Shown here: in pieces, positions 3,888 through 18,650 of the stretch
How positions within the stretch are numbered: position 1 is the first letter of the stretch
Layout of the letters: the number at the start of each line of letters is the position of its first letter
DNA from: an uncultured Candidatus Poseidoniales archaeon
GTDB taxonomy: Archaea > Thermoplasmatota > Poseidoniia > Poseidoniales > Thalassarchaeaceae
Direction of reading: 5' to 3'
Length of the DNA: 21,611 bases
Assembly: GCA_964645485.1 (NCBI GenBank)
Contig: CAZXZO010000029.1
Span: 1-21,611, forward strand
The notes under the pieces: generated by a model
Databases searched by the model: none
What the model was told of the DNA's origin: nothing
What the model saw: only the letters and a program-made list of their open reading frames with translations
Position numbers and translations under genes: made by a program

Positions 3888-3976
3888 ATTTTAGGCGGAC
3901 CATTTGTTGTCTTTCAACCTTCCAATTGTGAAATATCACCGTAGGTGGATGAATCAAGCATACAGCGGAAGGTGAG

Positions 3977-10659: not shown

Positions 10660-13600
10660 ATGGGACTACGTAGTTTAACCCCGATGATTTTAGCAGCACT
10701 GATGTTGATGATGAGCTGGGGCGCTCTTATCGATGCAGTAGAAATGAATGATGAAGACGAAAATACAGCAGTATTGGAGACTGTTGATGTTGTGTTTGCC
10801 CCAAGCAACCCTGGTCATACAGTGTTTGGACAATACATAACATCTGACAATTGCGGATATTGTATGAGTTATGGTAGTCCAGCACATGATCAAGCAAAGA
10901 ATAGTTTGCCAGATAATTATGTGTACATTTCCTACCACAGTGCATCCTATGGTAATACAGCCGATGCAGAATCTGGTAATATCGCACCTATCTATGGTGT
11001 TTCCCACTTACAAGAAACAAGTGGTGCACCAAAGACATCTTTCGGAGATTCTACTCTTAACACAGGTTGTGGATCCAACACTTGCTGGGATTCCTACATC
11101 TCAAGTGGAGGTAACATGCACTCTACTGCAGCCGACTATGCAGTTGGTGTAGGACAGAGTGATAATGGCGACGGTACAACTGATATAACAATCTCAGCAT
11201 CTTACATAGGTTCAGGTACTGCTGCATCGTCAATCACATTGTACGCTGCAGTTACTGAGAAGGTTTGTCACTCCCACGCTTATTCAGATGGAAGCAAAGG
11301 TGGTAACTGCTGGGAAGCATGGCTATTGGACAATGGCAACTATGCAAGCAACAGTGGAAATACAGGTGGTTCAGGATTTGAGACAGTTTCGCTCTCCTCA
11401 GGTTCAGCTTCCAAGTCATGGACTGTTCCAAACAGTCTAGTAAGCGGTGGTGCAAGCAACATGAATACTGTTGCTGCACTCTTCAGCGGATGGAGCGCAA
11501 GCAGTTTCCGAGAGAATGTTTACGCTGCAGGTGACAGCACAATGAACCCACTAGACCTATCAGTTACTGATATGACAGTAACTAATCTTGACGCCCAATC
11601 TGTAGGATTCAAAACTGGTGACAGACTTCAGTTAGATGCAACAATTGGCAATACTGGCCAAGAAGATTATTCCGGTGCTGGTCAAATCCAATTCTTTGAA
11701 ATCAGTAGCTCAGGTTCTGAAAACCCAATTGGTCAAGCAGTTTCATTGAATAATTTGGTGGCTGGTGCAACTCAATCAGTTTCCGCTGAATTTGACACAT
11801 CTTCAATCCCAATGAATCAGAATGACCCTAACACTGTGTTCCGAATTAAATTAACAGGAACTGTTGGTGAGAGTATGGCATCGAATAATGTTCAGGATGT
11901 TCTAGCACCTCACGACTTATTACCTGGTACATCCAAGCCAATTTCAGTTGGCTCAACTCAGATAGATAGAGGAAGCGTCCTTGACTTTGAAGTCTCAGGA
12001 TTCTCCAACGACAATGTGGACGACATGTCCTCAATGACAGCAGAATTTGAAACAAGTGAAGCAGGCGCGAACCAATGGAGTGGTGCTTGGATAACTGGTG
12101 GAAATCTAATGGGCGCAGGTGGCGCAAATGAGCGCTTTGTGTTCACTGTTACCCCACCTAACTCCGCAGCCAGCGGTGATTACGACGCCCGAGCAAGACT
12201 GATTGATGCAAGAGGCCAAATTGGTGACTGGTCCACAGTTAACAGTAATGCATTCAGCCTCCTGAATGGTCTTCCAATGGTTGTAAACTCAGATAATCTT
12301 GGTGAAGCCCCTTCAAACTGCCCAACATACCCAGGTCAGCCAACAGTTAAGGTAGAAACAATTGAGACAATTCCTGTAGCAGGTTTGATTTGCGATGCTG
12401 AAACACCTCTTGACCAACTTGTAATATCAAGCACTAACCCTGCATTCCGCTCATGGAATCCAACAACCGGAGAAATCGAAGTTAAGTTTGATACAGTTAA
12501 CAAGAATCTCCAAGGAGAAGTAATTGCACAACCACTTCAAGTAAACCTCCACGATGGTGAGGACAGCAACAGCGGAACACTCAATATTATGGTTATTGAA
12601 AATGGTGCACCACGCTGGTCATCTCTGCCGACACAATCCTTCGATGAAGGTTCGGGAAGTTCACTAATCATGACAACTTTCTTGTCTGACACAGATTCTA
12701 GTGGTCAAAGTTCAAGTCCAATGGGATTAGCATTAACTGTTGAATACATTTCGAACACTTCCTTAATTGAAGCAAGTTTGAATGGCCACACTCTCAACAT
12801 CGATGCAGTTGATGATGATGTATTCGGCACAGCATTAGTAACAATCCGTGCAACAGATGCTGATGGCCAATCGTCAGACACAGATTTGACAGTAATTATC
12901 GCTAACGTGAATGATGCTCCAACACTTGATACGTCATTCTTTGACGACTTCAAAATCAAGGTCGGTGACGAGTTCACCTTCAACGTGGGCGAAAGCATGT
13001 CTGATGTTGATGATGCAGTAGATCCAATCAATGTGGTAGTTTCCGCAGACACATGGCAGACAGGTTCTCGATACAATGCTCTAACTGGAGAACTCAAAGC
13101 TTCGTTCGAAGATGAAGGAACTCATACTATTTCCATAGTAGTACGTGATTCACATGATGGAATGAGTGCCTATGATGTCACAGTTGAGGCTGTAGACAGT
13201 TTGCCACTTGTGTGGTCTGAAAACGCTAACTCTGGAGACATGATGGTACAGGCTGAAAACGTCTTCGTAGGCGAACTTCCAACCTTTGTGGTTACTCAGC
13301 ACAGTGATTTGGTATTGTCTGACATTGAAATAGAATGGTCGATATGTAATCTTGATTCAGGAATTTGTTCGGACTTCGGTCTTGAGAATCCAACATCACT
13401 AACAGAATTCAATTTCACCATCGCAAAAGACGGTGGAGTGTTATTCCGTGATTATGTGAGTATTGGGGTTACCGCAATTGATTCCGATGGATTCGATAGA
13501 GAGACAACAACTGCCTTGAAATATGAAGTAACCGAAGAGAGACCAGAAGTTGTTGATGACTCAACTGATGATACAACTGTTAGTGGTGACGAAACACAAA

Positions 13601-13917
13601 ACGCAGCAGGTAATGCAGATATGGTAGTTTACGGCATCATTGGTGCATTCATCGTTGCTCTTCTAATTGCTCTCACGCTTGGAGTTATGCTTCTTCGTGG
13701 CGGTAAGGAACAGGAACTTGGAATGGGTTACGGGACAGCACCTCTAATGGGTATGCCACCAGCACCAGCAACTGATCTAGGAATGGTTCCAGACTACACT
13801 CATCTACCAGCCGGTGGAAACTATGTGACTAACGATTCAGGTCAGACTGTTTATCTTTCACCAGATAGCACTGACTGGACAATGCAGGCAGACAATACAT
13901 TCGTCCGCACTCGCTAA
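10660..13917 (+). CDS. Large secreted, C-terminally membrane-anchored surface protein: Omp28-like thioredoxin-fold CxxC domain, CARDB/Ig-like and cadherin-like domains
   Basis: N-terminal hydrophobic signal; TSDNCGYC...YISYH; LDATIGNTG...L-x-AGATQSVS (CARDB-like); DADG, VNDAP and DVDD cadherin-type motifs; TM segment VVYGIIGAFIVALLIALTLGVMLL; short cytoplasmic tail. Confidence 0.8.
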   Translation: MGLRSLTPMILAALMLMMSWGALIDAVEMNDEDENTAVLETVDVVFAPSNPGHTVFGQYITSDNCGYCMSYGSPAHDQAKNSLPDNYVYISYHSASYGNTADAESGNIAPIYGVSHLQETSGAPKTSFGDSTLNTGCGSNTCWDSYISSGGNMHSTAADYAVGVGQSDNGDGTTDITISASYIGSGTAASSITLYAAVTEKVCHSHAYSDGSKGGNCWEAWLLDNGNYASNSGNTGGSGFETVSLSSGSASKSWTVPNSLVSGGASNMNTVAALFSGWSASSFRENVYAAGDSTMNPLDLSVTDMTVTNLDAQSVGFKTGDRLQLDATIGNTGQEDYSGAGQIQFFEISSSGSENPIGQAVSLNNLVAGATQSVSAEFDTSSIPMNQNDPNTVFRIKLTGTVGESMASNNVQDVLAPHDLLPGTSKPISVGSTQIDRGSVLDFEVSGFSNDNVDDMSSMTAEFETSEAGANQWSGAWITGGNLMGAGGANERFVFTVTPPNSAASGDYDARARLIDARGQIGDWSTVNSNAFSLLNGLPMVVNSDNLGEAPSNCPTYPGQPTVKVETIETIPVAGLICDAETPLDQLVISSTNPAFRSWNPTTGEIEVKFDTVNKNLQGEVIAQPLQVNLHDGEDSNSGTLNIMVIENGAPRWSSLPTQSFDEGSGSSLIMTTFLSDTDSSGQSSSPMGLALTVEYISNTSLIEASLNGHTLNIDAVDDDVFGTALVTIRATDADGQSSDTDLTVIIANVNDAPTLDTSFFDDFKIKVGDEFTFNVGESMSDVDDAVDPINVVVSADTWQTGSRYNALTGELKASFEDEGTHTISIVVRDSHDGMSAYDVTVEAVDSLPLVWSENANSGDMMVQAENVFVGELPTFVVTQHSDLVLSDIEIEWSICNLDSGICSDFGLENPTSLTEFNFTIAKDGGVLFRDYVSIGVTAIDSDGFDRETTTALKYEVTEERPEVVDDSTDDTTVSGDETQNAAGNADMVVYGIIGAFIVALLIALTLGVMLLRGGKEQELGMGYGTAPLMGMPPAPATDLGMVPDYTHLPAGGNYVTNDSGQTVYLSPDSTDWTMQADNTFVRTR

Positions 13918-14067
13918 TCCTAGTACTAACAGCATGAGGGGTTTCCCCTCTCTAGGGAGCTTGACATAGCGTTAGTCTTCGTCGACACTCGCTAATCGTA
14001 CCCCCCTGACAGCATGAAGGAGTCACATTCTCTGTGAGAATTGACTTACGGTTAGTTTTGGCCCACA
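13908..14067 (+). ncRNA. Two tandem ~79-nt elements with conserved blocks and covarying stems; candidate structured RNA of unknown family
   Basis: Blocks CACTCGCTAATC, ACAGCATGA, TCTCT, TTGAC, GTTAGT and ACAC occur twice, with identical spacing from ACAGCATGA onward. Intervening bases differ while keeping pairing (see findings). Confidence 0.55.
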
Positions 14068-14112
14068 CATCATATCGGATGGTTCAATTGCTAAGCGCAT
14101 CTACCCTTGTTG

Positions 14113-14679
14113 ATGGCAAACGGACCCCGTCCCGATGGAGACGCAACCCGTGCTAGGATACTCATTTTTCTTGAAAAGAACCAAGGCGCCCATCTATCCG
14201 CCATTATTCGAGCCCTTCAACTAGGGAATCATCAAGCAACTATTCACCTCAAAACACTAGAATCCCAGTCCTCAATTTGGGAACGAAGAGAAGGTCAGTT
14301 GTTGAGATATTTCACGAATACAATCCCACCCCACACTTCACCTGAAGATTTACCAAACCCCCCCCAAATGTTCACACCTGATTCTGTGCAGTTTCGTATT
14401 ATTGACCGTCTAGCAAGGAACCCCAACCCAAGCAATAATGCAGGTCCCCTAACACAAGGAAAACTTGCAGATGAACTAGGATGTAGTCAACAATTAATCA
14501 GTCACCATCTTATTGCTCTTGAAAAGAGTGGATGCATTAAATCTCGTAAGTCTGGATTTCGAAAAAATTGGAGTGTGTTGGCTCCTGGTTTGCAAGCGAT
14601 TACAGGCGGCTCACGCTCTTTGTCAAGCATAGATCACCACGATTTGGAAGCATTGATAGTTCATTATGGTGGAGAATAA
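14113..14679 (+). CDS. Transcriptional regulator with two winged-helix (ArsR/MarR-like) domains
   Basis: HTH1: RARILIFLEKNQGAHLSAIIRALQLGNHQATIHLKTLE. HTH2: LTQGKLADELGCSQQLISHHLIALEKSGCI. ATG at 14113. Confidence 0.85.
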   Translation: MANGPRPDGDATRARILIFLEKNQGAHLSAIIRALQLGNHQATIHLKTLESQSSIWERREGQLLRYFTNTIPPHTSPEDLPNPPQMFTPDSVQFRIIDRLARNPNPSNNAGPLTQGKLADELGCSQQLISHHLIALEKSGCIKSRKSGFRKNWSVLAPGLQAITGGSRSLSSIDHHDLEALIVHYGGE

Positions 14680-14778
14680 ACACACCTACTTTGGTCAATT
14701 TTTCCTCTTTTTGATGGTTTCCGCATTGAATATATCTAACATTAGTATAAGAACGAGTACCAAAATAAGCCGAAACAA

Positions 14779-14807: not shown

Positions 14808-14984
14808 ATGGCATCTGTAACAGATAACCTGCAAGCAATGATCGACACCCTGATGGGTGCAATGAAAGACGCTGAAAAGCACGAGCGCGGCACAGATGCT
14901 GCGTCACGCCGCCTACGCGGTGTACTATCAGCAACTGCAAAGAGCTGCAAGTCTCTTCGTGGTCAGATCCAAGACGAGCGCTGA
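14808..14984 (+). CDS. 58-aa Hc1-like (histone H1-like nucleoprotein N-terminal domain) small protein
   Basis: Manual translation (below the ORF-track cutoff): MASVTDNLQAMIDTLMGAMKDAEKHERGTDAASRRLRGVLSATAKSCKSLRGQIQDER. The DAEK-x-x-x-G-x-x-AA-x-x-R-L-R pattern matches the Hc1 family. It has its own TATA box and terminator. Confidence 0.8.
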   Translation: MASVTDNLQAMIDTLMGAMKDAEKHERGTDAASRRLRGVLSATAKSCKSLRGQIQDER

Positions 14985-15030
14985 AGTTCCTTCAACGCCA
15001 CTTGGTAATCTTTCCAGTATATGCGAACAC

Positions 15031-15080
15031 GGCCCGTCTTGGGGGGGGATTTTTCCCTTCCAAGCGGGCCATTTTTTTTT
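15031..15080 (+). terminator. Long hairpin plus T9 tract (intrinsic-terminator-like)
   Basis: GGCCCG/CGGGCC, CTTGG/CCAAG and an inner G-run/CCCTT stem with G-U pairs, followed by TTTTTTTTT at 15072-15080. Confidence 0.7.
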
Positions 15081-15131
15081 GTATTTTTATTAATGATATT
15101 CTCCAATTATTGTCTTCAAAATAATCTTTGA

Positions 15132-15722: not shown

Positions 15723-17501
15723 TTATTCAGCAATAACTTGACCATGTGTAGTCCACACCTGCCATTCTCCGCCTCCATTCAAAAAGTCTGCTTGACCGTT
15801 TCCTGCCATTCCCCAACCTTGAGGTGCCACCCAAGAGGAGCCCGGAGCGAGAATCACCCATTGAACATTGGAGAGATTTCCACGGTTTTCCATTTTCACC
15901 CCAGTCATTAGTTCGTCTTGCCACCCTGAATCGGGAGCCCGCCAGTGCCCGGTTACATTTCGTGAATTGTCCAGGTCAATTTCGGTGTGAAAGGTGTAGA
16001 GGTAGTGCATTCCCAAAGTGCCCTCATGGATGAACAAAAAATCTTCTCCATCTTCCATATTTCTGTCCAACGCCTTTGCCGCATCGTCAGTCCAATAGGT
16101 CTGCCCATGTATTCCTGCGAGTAGGGAAAGTGGAATGATTAACAGGATTCCAAGAGCAAATGCCGCACTCTTTTTTCCGGGATTTCCAAGAGACGGAAGG
16201 TCAGGATAGAGGTGATTAAGATGCCCTAAAAGCATCAAAATTGGAATCATTGTGAGTGAAATATAGCGACCATTATTGCCCATTGTCCACATTACCCAAG
16301 GCCAATCTGCGTTCCAAATTATTGATTCATAAGTCCATAATGCTGCAACATAAATCGTGATTGCTGTTGTGAAGCCGGCGATTGAAATCGTGATAAAAGT
16401 CGCCGGCATATTTTTTGTTGCAACAAATCTCTTCCAAGCAGAGGAGACGAAAGGCCAAATCATCATTCCGAATAATGTGTAAATTACTACAATGTTGAAA
16501 ATTGAAACGACGAGGGCAAAGAAAAATCGAGGGGCATTTATTGAGATTACAGAAAGTGTTGCACCTCCACCACTTGCTCCAAGGGCGAGCATCGATATTC
16601 CAACAACAGTTGAAATCAGCAATCCACCGCGCAGTGGATTGCGAGTTAGAGAGTGTAGTGCTGGCAGATAGAGGTCAACTAAATGAAATGCCAAAACTGC
16701 TAGTCCAAAGAATAGTCCATATATTGGATTGATTCCCTTCAACATCATGATGCCCATCATGCAGACAGCGGATGCAAAAGCCCCACCAATACGGTATTCA
16801 ATCCCTTTTTCGGCAACTAATTTAGCGTTGATTAAAACAATCACTGCAACAAACATTGCAATCGTTGGTTCAGAGTAAGCCCTTCCAGTTGAGAAAATAA
16901 ATGTTGGATAAATTGCAATCAGTGCCGCAGCCCTTCTACTATTTCCTCCTGAGAACATTCCGTATGCAAAACCTCCAAGGCCAACTAGTAACAAAGTGAG
17001 GCTAAGAGCCAAGCCTCTAACACCGATTTCTCCAAGAGATGATGGGGCGAGAGAAAGTGTCCAACCGTTGTCAGAAGGTGCGTAATCAGGGTCACTTGCT
17101 AAATTGTCGATGGGTCGTGTGTGACCCCAAACTAGGCTGCCATCATCATCTTTAGCAAGGCGAGTATGGGTGTCCACACCTAACTCGCTAGAAAATGCAG
17201 TAAACACATTGAGTAGAATACCACAAATCAGTAACCATTTCCAAAACTGTTTGTTATCAACAAATGACCACCAAGCAGTCGCCGATTCGGGGGAAATTTT
17301 AGGCGGGATTTTTTCGGAGGGCGAGTCGGCCGCTTCAGGTGCTGAGGTGGCGGCAGATGAATCAGCAAATTCAGGCGGGATTTTTTCGGAGGGCGAGTTA
17401 GCAATTTCAGGTGCTGAGTTGGAGGCAGATGAATCAGCAAATTCAGAAGTGAATTTTTCGGCCGATTCGTCGGAAGAATCGGCATCATCTATTGCTTCCA
17501 C
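15723..17501 (-). CDS. Multi-pass membrane protein, probable GT-C fold (ArnT/PMT-like) glycosyltransferase, with an acidic repetitive N-terminus
   Basis: About 10-12 TM segments; acidic residue in the first loop (ELGVDTH); IYPTFIFSTGRAYSEPT; GRYISLTMIP; soluble C-terminal domain. GTG start. Confidence 0.6.
   Translation of the reverse strand: MEAIDDADSSDESAEKFTSEFADSSASNSAPEIANSPSEKIPPEFADSSAATSAPEAADSPSEKIPPKISPESATAWWSFVDNKQFWKWLLICGILLNVFTAFSSELGVDTHTRLAKDDDGSLVWGHTRPIDNLASDPDYAPSDNGWTLSLAPSSLGEIGVRGLALSLTLLLVGLGGFAYGMFSGGNSRRAAALIAIYPTFIFSTGRAYSEPTIAMFVAVIVLINAKLVAEKGIEYRIGGAFASAVCMMGIMMLKGINPIYGLFFGLAVLAFHLVDLYLPALHSLTRNPLRGGLLISTVVGISMLALGASGGGATLSVISINAPRFFFALVVSIFNIVVIYTLFGMMIWPFVSSAWKRFVATKNMPATFITISIAGFTTAITIYVAALWTYESIIWNADWPWVMWTMGNNGRYISLTMIPILMLLGHLNHLYPDLPSLGNPGKKSAAFALGILLIIPLSLLAGIHGQTYWTDDAAKALDRNMEDGEDFLFIHEGTLGMHYLYTFHTEIDLDNSRNVTGHWRAPDSGWQDELMTGVKMENRGNLSNVQWVILAPGSSWVAPQGWGMAGNGQADFLNGGGEWQVWTTHGQVIAE
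17301..17446 (-). repeat. Coding tandem repeat, 2 x 72 nt (24 aa)
   Basis: 17301-17372 vs 17373-17444 differ at 7 of 72 positions; PEFADSSA(S/A)(N/T)SAPE(I/A)A(N/D)SPSEKIP-type unit. Confidence 0.92.
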
Positions 17502-17526
17502 AATTTTAGGCTGAAGTCAGATTGCA

Positions 17527-17545
17527 ATTGAGCCTTCGGCTCAAT
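17527..17545 (-). other. Perfect 8-bp hairpin directly after the fen stop codon
   Basis: Minus strand ATTGAGCC-GAA-GGCTCAAT. Confidence 0.6.
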
Positions 17546-18567: not shown

Positions 18568-18650
18568 ATTAATCGCCTCCAAATGTCATATCAATTGCAA
18601 CAGTGAAAAACAATCGCCGCCCTTGAGATTTCCCAAGGCATTCCACATCC

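Follow-up and report, generated by a model that had tools for sequence, protein, structure and literature searches.

The paired repeat units at positions 13900 to 14057 of the window, that is, of the whole 21,611-nt stretch of DNA from an uncultured Candidatus Poseidoniales archaeon that was analysed, are a lineage-specific tandem duplication of the final 18 nt of a surface-protein coding sequence (CDS) and of the hairpin that follows its stop codon. The duplicated module is an ordinary feature of a gene end. An earlier note on this DNA had taken the pair for a candidate new family of structured RNA; in its place there is now a history, in which a gene-end hairpin was copied together with 18 nt of coding sequence. 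As for what the hairpin does, the reading that it forms the 3′-terminal stem-loop of the surface-protein mRNA, located between two cistrons and duplicated here, has in our judgement slightly better than an even chance of being right.

The upstream gene (10660..13917, plus strand, from the list of open reading frames and its translation) encodes a protein of 1085 aa. From a signal-like N-terminal segment the protein continues through a large extracellular region to a single C-terminal membrane helix, after which comes a conserved cytoplasmic tail of about 70 aa that terminates in ...DNTFVRTR*. A comparison of this protein with Pfam gave no match. Its orthologues are present across the family Thalassarchaeaceae, and the conserved tail is common to its paralogues. 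In the genome to which the window belongs, four large proteins (1085-1935 aa) have a common C-terminal cytoplasmic tail motif (...PDG..W.MQ.D.SF...), found at 13612-13914 of the window and at C22:15912-16079, C9:35294-35410, and C1:151849-151977. They form a membrane-anchored surface-protein family without a Pfam match, of which there are several paralogues in relatives too. The paralogues have no stable hairpin after their stop codons.

Repeat unit 1 (13900..13977, plus strand) consists of the true final 18 nt of the CDS (TTCGTCCGCACTCGCTAA), which read TTC GTC CGC ACT CGC TAA and encode FVRTR*, and of the ancestral post-stop hairpin. The stop codon (13915-13917) is therefore inside this unit, as the earlier note had seen when it described an overlap of copy 1 with the end of the gene; what it missed is that the end of the CDS recurs in the other copy. 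Repeat unit 2 (13978..14057, plus strand) begins with a non-coding pseudo-copy of the CDS end (TTCGTCGACACTCGCTAA, 13978-13995), identical to it at 16 of 18 positions, a match that none of 500 shuffles reached, and continues with a diverged hairpin. Because unit 2 starts with a copy of the CDS end, the pair is a 78-nt tandem duplication of a gene-end module made of the CDS end and the downstream hairpin. The pseudo-copy reads TTC GTC GAC ACT CGC TAA, which turns FVRTR* into FVDTR*, and this Arg-to-Asp change hits a residue that is invariant in the orthologues. It is in phase with the surface-protein gene but behind three stops.

The similarity between the units extends well beyond the coding remnant. 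The motifs listed in the earlier note are all present in both copies: CACTCGCTAATC at 13908 and 13986, ACAGCATGA at 13929 and 14009, TTGAC at 13961 and 14041, and GTTAGT at 13971 and 14051. A repeat search finds a direct repeat of 23 nt (TTCGTCCGCACTCGCTAATCCTA and TTCGTCGACACTCGCTAATCGTA) with a spacing of 78 nt, and alignment of the units with MAFFT gives a mean column identity of 79%, or about 67% outside the CDS remnant. None of 2000 shuffles reaches their post-stop similarity, and the divergent 23-nt cores, too, resemble each other more than chance would predict (p about 0.01). In a maximum-likelihood tree of the two units and nine orthologous elements, the units are sisters with a support of 95/97, and the branch of unit 2 (0.5) is about five times longer than that of unit 1 (0.093). 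The head-to-tail arrangement, the non-coding copy of the CDS end, the sister relationship, and the single copy found in relatives are the marks of a tandem gene-end duplication. In addition, the sequence that follows unit 2, TTGGCCCACAC (14058..14068, plus strand), matches the start of the unit, TTCGTCCGCAC, at 7 of 11 positions, the layout expected for a duplication between two short imperfect direct repeats. These are probably the repeats between which the duplication arose, and the 78-nt segment would have been copied head to tail, with short TTCG..C..CAC repeats as the sites of slippage or unequal exchange.

An assembly artefact is ruled out, as six contigs from separate samples and different assemblers (ENA, Logan, JGI) have the same 195-nt spacer with the tandem. 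They differ at one base, a synonymous C-to-T change at 13914 in one contig. The tandem is thus fixed in six assemblies, with no variation in copy number among them, and the downstream regulator protein is 100% identical on contigs of six separate samples. Two coding explanations were also discarded. The 78-nt period is in frame, which would suit read-through of the stop codon into unit 2, yet an in-frame TAG and TAA occur within four codons of the TAA. Small open reading frames starting at the ATGA common to both units would encode peptides of 11 and 7 aa that are unrelated and have no counterpart in the orthologues. No tRNA or tmRNA was found.

Hairpin 1 (13913..13976, plus strand) is long and imperfect, and matches a covariance model of the element with 55.6 bits. 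Its basal helix pairs GCTAATCCTA (13913-13922) with TAGCGTTAGT (13967-13976) at 9 of 10 positions and encloses the stop codon; the same helix is also present in the minimum-energy folds of seven near relatives. Its apical helix pairs GAGGGG (13936-13941) with CCCCTC (13945-13950), so that unit 1 retains the GGGG-TTT-CCCC apex found in orthologues. Hairpin 2 (13991..14056, plus strand), seen in the minimum-energy fold, matches the model with 44.7 bits. Its basal helix, GCTAATCGTA (13991-14000) with TACGGTTAGT (14047-14056), is fully paired (10/10), and its inner helix of 10 pairs is formed by GTCACATTCTC (14022-14032) and GAGAATTGAC (14036-14045). The outer stems are therefore as the earlier note had described them. 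By contrast, the alternative pairing of CTAAC with GTTAG, which had been read there as a possible switch, is poorer in the relatives, where the orthologous column is CCAAC, CCGAC, or CCTAC.

On the plus strand, neither copy folds better than dinucleotide shuffles of itself (z of -0.5 for copy 1, -1.3 for copy 2, and -0.8 for the pair), and the lowest z (-1.9) belongs to the minus-strand fold of the whole region. Directly after hairpin 2 there is a TTTT (14056-14059) whose first T is the last base of the stem, while no U tail follows copy 1 or most of the orthologous hairpins. A scan of 13600-14400 for terminator-like structures gave a single match, where shuffles lead one to expect 0.5. It is a 7-pair stem at 14032-14051 in copy 2 with the tail TTAGTTTTGG; it has the same TTTT as hairpin 2, but a different and shorter stem.

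In the relatives examined, which belong to several genera of the Thalassarchaeaceae (MGIIb), the order of surface-protein gene, hairpin, and winged-helix (wHTH) gene is kept, and every related spacer examined has one element as against two here. Within a sub-clade of the genus, comprising eight species and metagenome contigs, the element can be aligned. There it has a basal helix GCTAATC(R)/(Y)GGTTAGT around the stop codon, a middle helix, and a GGGG-TTTN-CCCC apex. Among near relatives, the identity of the element (73%) compares with 61% at four-fold sites and 82% in the promoter stretch. A covariance model built on the sub-clade alignment was searched in 21 genomes of the genus and gave two matches in the genome studied here and one match each in 8 of the 20 others, always at the orthologous locus. 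None of the 21 genomes has a match anywhere else, so the element does not belong to a widespread RNA family. A dispersed repeat of the MITE or REP type was likewise rejected, since BLAST and nhmmer find no further copies in the own genome (1.94 Mb, 82% complete) and the covariance model agrees with them. Rfam 15 yields nothing at E ≤ 10 for 13600-14400, nor anything window-wide at gathering thresholds, and a literature search on Poseidoniales and non-coding RNA found no paper.

Outside the sub-clade, what persists is the hairpin rather than its sequence. Even where the sequences of different genera bear no relation to one another, a stable G+C-rich hairpin is found 10-30 nt downstream of the stop; its distance from the upstream stop is constant, while the length of the spacer varies from 99 to 360 nt. 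Hairpins with z < -2 are present in 17 of 27 distinct orthologous spacers, representing about eight unrelated hairpin sequences, as compared with 10% among 450 gene ends taken at random from the own genome and 6% among its CDS controls. Three orthologue groups (L028, L040, L063) have no clear hairpin. Thus, one surface-protein gene keeps a stable 3′ hairpin over family-level divergence in uncultured marine group II archaea, in a setting where, taking the own genome as a whole, hairpins are not used at gene ends, which otherwise have T-tracts.

This persistence with unrelated sequences is better evidence for a structure than covariation is. In an alignment of 11 sequences, the proposed structure pairs 80% of the cells within the sub-clade, and one pair in the basal helix clearly covaries, with four pair types (GC 4, AU 3, GU 2, CG 1). 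Nevertheless, the covariation score across near relatives (0.136, against 0.122 in column shuffles) is not significant, as 66 of 500 shuffles score as high, and RNAalifold assigns almost no covariation energy. The earlier conclusion that the two copies reflect selection on structure rather than a decaying duplication is therefore not borne out: in addition to the single covarying pair, copy 2 has the fivefold longer branch, and 6% of mutated versions of copy 1 fold at least as well. G-U cells outnumber A-C cells (40 to 20) when the plus strand is considered, although the structure was itself derived on that strand, and this excess is a mild pointer to pairing in plus-strand RNA.

The gene downstream of the hairpins (14113..14679, plus strand) encodes a double winged-helix regulator of 188 aa, in which Pfam recognises an HVO_0163-N HTH and a MarR/ArsR-type HTH domain; the source names it 'ArsR family'. 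A box, TTCAATTG (14083..14090, plus strand), is located downstream of both units and ends 22 nt before the ATG of this gene. Orthologues of several genera have it as TTCAATTG, TTGAATTG, or TTCAATTA, and in every orthologue checked the spacer between box and ATG is 21-22 nt long and of non-conserved sequence. The centre of the box is near -27 relative to the start of a leaderless mRNA, and a TATA element at that position agrees with the established promoter geometry of leaderless archaeal mRNAs. The conserved box is a predicted promoter element, at the position of a TATA box, or an operator. With the box at TATA spacing, both repeat units are upstream of the regulator's own predicted promoter. 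CAATTG is, however, no general promoter box, as a crude genome-wide histogram has no peak for it at the expected promoter position. Its role would then be specific to a few genes, or it would be that of an operator.

The spacer between the two genes (13918-14112) also lacks the canonical archaeal intrinsic terminator, namely at least five T shortly after the gene. It has no T5 run, the longest being the T4 at 14056-14059, and the first T5 tracts are found 3′ of the regulator gene, at about 14700-14712, followed by a T9 run 3′ of the next small gene. This small gene (14808-14984) encodes 58 aa with a weak match to Pfam Hc1. After it, at 15025-15082, there is a strong hairpin with the T9 run (GGCCCG...CGGGCC, then TTTTTTTTT), an example of the canonical terminator as this genome has it. 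In G010 (L093), of the same genus, neither the wHTH gene nor the hairpin is present, as though a single deletion had removed them, and T-rich tracts follow the surface-protein gene immediately, with the 58-aa Hc1-like gene after them. These tracts resemble those 3′ of the regulator gene in the window, and G010 shows that the surface-protein gene can do without the hairpin. A hairpin anchored to the stop codon, a spacer without T5, a predicted promoter box downstream, and the arrangement in G010 all fit a 3′ hairpin of the surface-protein message. The hairpin is possibly located within a leaky two-gene unit whose canonical terminator comes after the regulator gene. Of the four options that the earlier note had listed, it is accordingly the 3′-UTR element that stands, as relatives have one stop-anchored hairpin, while the leader, the L7Ae-bound or guide RNA, and the dispersed repeat do not.

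Concerning the function at the RNA level, the strand, and any role of copy 2, we infer the following from the sequence and its conservation. The hairpin would do its work in RNA of the plus strand, where the surface-protein message ends, by blocking 3′-to-5′ decay, by causing a partial stop or a pause of RNA polymerase ahead of the wHTH gene, or in both ways. With the wHTH gene promoted separately, an abundant structural mRNA would be uncoupled from the mRNA of a regulator. Copy 1 would be the ancestral, constrained hairpin, and copy 2 an additional one that evolves fast but still folds, with U4 after it.

Related arrangements are known in other systems. In bacteria, the REP hairpins of malE-malF and the hairpins of the puf operon are stable structures between a highly needed upstream cistron and a gene whose product is needed less, and such intercistronic hairpins are thought to block 3′-to-5′ decay and to set differential expression. 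The role of a decay barrier is suggested for the present hairpin by analogy with them. REP elements, however, belong to families of dispersed repeats that have transposases of their own, while the element described here is confined to a single locus and its host is an archaeon with different RNases. Tandem loci of the VNTR/MIRU type are similar in that a head-to-tail unit derives from the end of the upstream gene, including its hairpin or terminator, and in that the extra copy degenerates; here, by contrast, there are only two copies, which are old (see the identity outside the CDS remnant above) and fixed. Termination in archaea is normally driven by a U tract, and the lack of a U tract in most orthologous hairpins counts against the present reading. 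A role as a partial terminator is nevertheless plausible, because a hairpin that lacked a T stretch terminated 59% of the transcripts of an in vivo reporter in Haloferax volcanii and allowed read-through (PMC7237163). The hairpin-associated 3′ ends of that species (Berkemer et al. 2020, PMC7237163) likewise have a stem-loop without a long T stretch at or after the end of the gene. In contrast to those of Haloferax, the hairpin described here is predicted from sequence. It is tied to a single gene throughout a family and is no part of a genome-wide class; the stop codon falls within its basal helix, and there are two copies of it in the genome studied here. The locus is a convenient test case for hairpin-dependent 3′-end formation or mRNA protection in marine group II archaea.

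The spacer itself has a history of small duplications in other relatives, and DNA rich in hairpins is often prone to local duplication. In G001 (L094:1126-1605), another species of the genus, the final 20-22 nt of its own CDS (CGTTCATCCGCAC...TGA) recur 65 nt after the true stop, with 15 of 18 positions matching, a level reached by none of 500 shuffles. The spacer of G001 is 360 nt long, when about 115 nt is usual, and it has two copies of the CAATTG promoter box at a distance of 31 nt. A duplication of the whole unit was rejected in this case, since only the CDS end repeats and the remainder of the units is alike at chance level (p = 0.26). The copy of the CDS end in G001 appears to have arisen at this locus independently. 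In G003 (L028:2115-2164), a segment of the 3′ arm in the spacer (...GTTAGTT and its flank) occurs twice, 37 nt apart. Together with the window, these two cases make the spacer seem prone to local duplication.

The principal alternative concerns copy 2. It is possible, although we think it unlikely, that only copy 1 matters and that copy 2 is a functionless by-product of slippage in slow decay. Such a by-product would account for its branch of 0.5 against 0.093 for copy 1 and for the Arg-to-Asp change in its pseudo-CDS, and a single copy suffices in all relatives. Moreover, when copy 1 is mutated at random, 6% of the resulting sequences fold as stably as copy 2 or more so (p = 0.06 overall and 0.24 in the central part), and the local duplications in the spacers of G001 and G003 suggest a mutational hotspot. 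On the other hand, copy 2 has the better basal helix (10/10), and at the three arm positions where it departs from copy 1, pairing is either kept or regained. Its differences are also fewer in the flanks (9/42) than in the middle (17/38), with p = 0.03 for a partition chosen after the fact, and it is fixed in six separately assembled samples of a compact genome. A different and rather speculative extension, to which we give little credence, takes the hairpin for a gene-specific regulatory RNA across the Thalassarchaeaceae. In that case, the basal helix would sequester the stop codon, a protein, perhaps the adjacent double-wHTH regulator, would read the hairpin and couple surface-protein output to expression of the regulator, and extra copies would have been selected twice, here and in G001.

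Other explanations assign the hairpins to the downstream gene or to no gene at all. The idea that they are a cis-regulatory leader of the wHTH gene on read-through transcripts, riboswitch-like or bound by a protein, is very improbable. It could draw on the missing T5 terminator between the genes, with the first T-tracts 3′ of the wHTH gene, on the joint absence of hairpin and wHTH gene in G010, and on a gene pair that is syntenic across several genera. However, the hairpin is anchored to the upstream stop and not to the wHTH ATG, its distance from which varies with spacers of 99-360 nt, and the conserved box at a fixed 21-22 nt indicates a promoter downstream of both copies, which is what makes the riboswitch-like leader of the earlier note unlikely. 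Between genera the sequence of the hairpin is unconserved, it has neither a multi-helix junction nor a conserved loop, and there is no Rfam match. We consider it very improbable that a transcription factor, perhaps the wHTH protein, binds the arms (CTAAT..., GGTTAGT) as DNA, in which case the duplication would have added an operator. The arms are about 45 nt apart and form no compact palindrome, the 5′ arm is accounted for by coding sequence and the stop codon, changes compatible with G-U favour pairing in plus-strand RNA, and outside the genus it is only the property of forming a hairpin that is kept, with no sequence box. This has to be set against an ArsR/MarR-type regulator as the downstream gene and against GTTAGT-like boxes in distant orthologous spacers, twice in G003, beside the promoter box in G007, and in G021. 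Finally, each unit could be an independent small RNA, either similar to a C/D-box RNA or kink-turn with L7Ae, or antisense to the 3′ end of the gene, which we regard as extremely improbable. Archaeal C/D-box sRNAs have a C box RUGAUGA, a D box CUGA, tandem G-A pairs beside a canonical helix, and 12-nt guides. The likeness is that tandem sheared G-A pairs would be possible between AUGA on the 5′ strand and the UGA of UUGA on the 3′ strand. The boxes in the window are, however, imperfect (AUGAGGG or AUGAAGG, and UUGA), and their 23-nt distance does not suit a C/D guide, for which the 12-nt spacing is missing. No canonical helix stands beside the putative G-A pairs, and none of the nine orthologous elements keeps the AUGA and UUGA letters, so that the kink-turn proposed in the earlier note has no counterpart in relatives. 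The low z of the minus strand (-1.9) and the palindromic CAATTG box, which could in principle fire both ways, would suit an independent transcript, but there is no TATA-like box before either unit on the plus strand and no Rfam match even at E = 10.

Two further observations concern the regulator and its box. In the window, boxes containing CAATTG are also found about 19-23 nt upstream of three other candidate start codons, at about 17525-17535 (minus strand), at 3920-3935, and at about 18590-18600 (minus strand), and one of the genes so preceded is a 592-aa open reading frame (15723-17501). These boxes might be operators of one regulon. The double-wHTH domain, in turn, is also found family-wide at the N terminus of open frames of about 870-1000 aa, for instance at C11:20116-20547 in the own genome; the small regulator thus has long fused paralogues.
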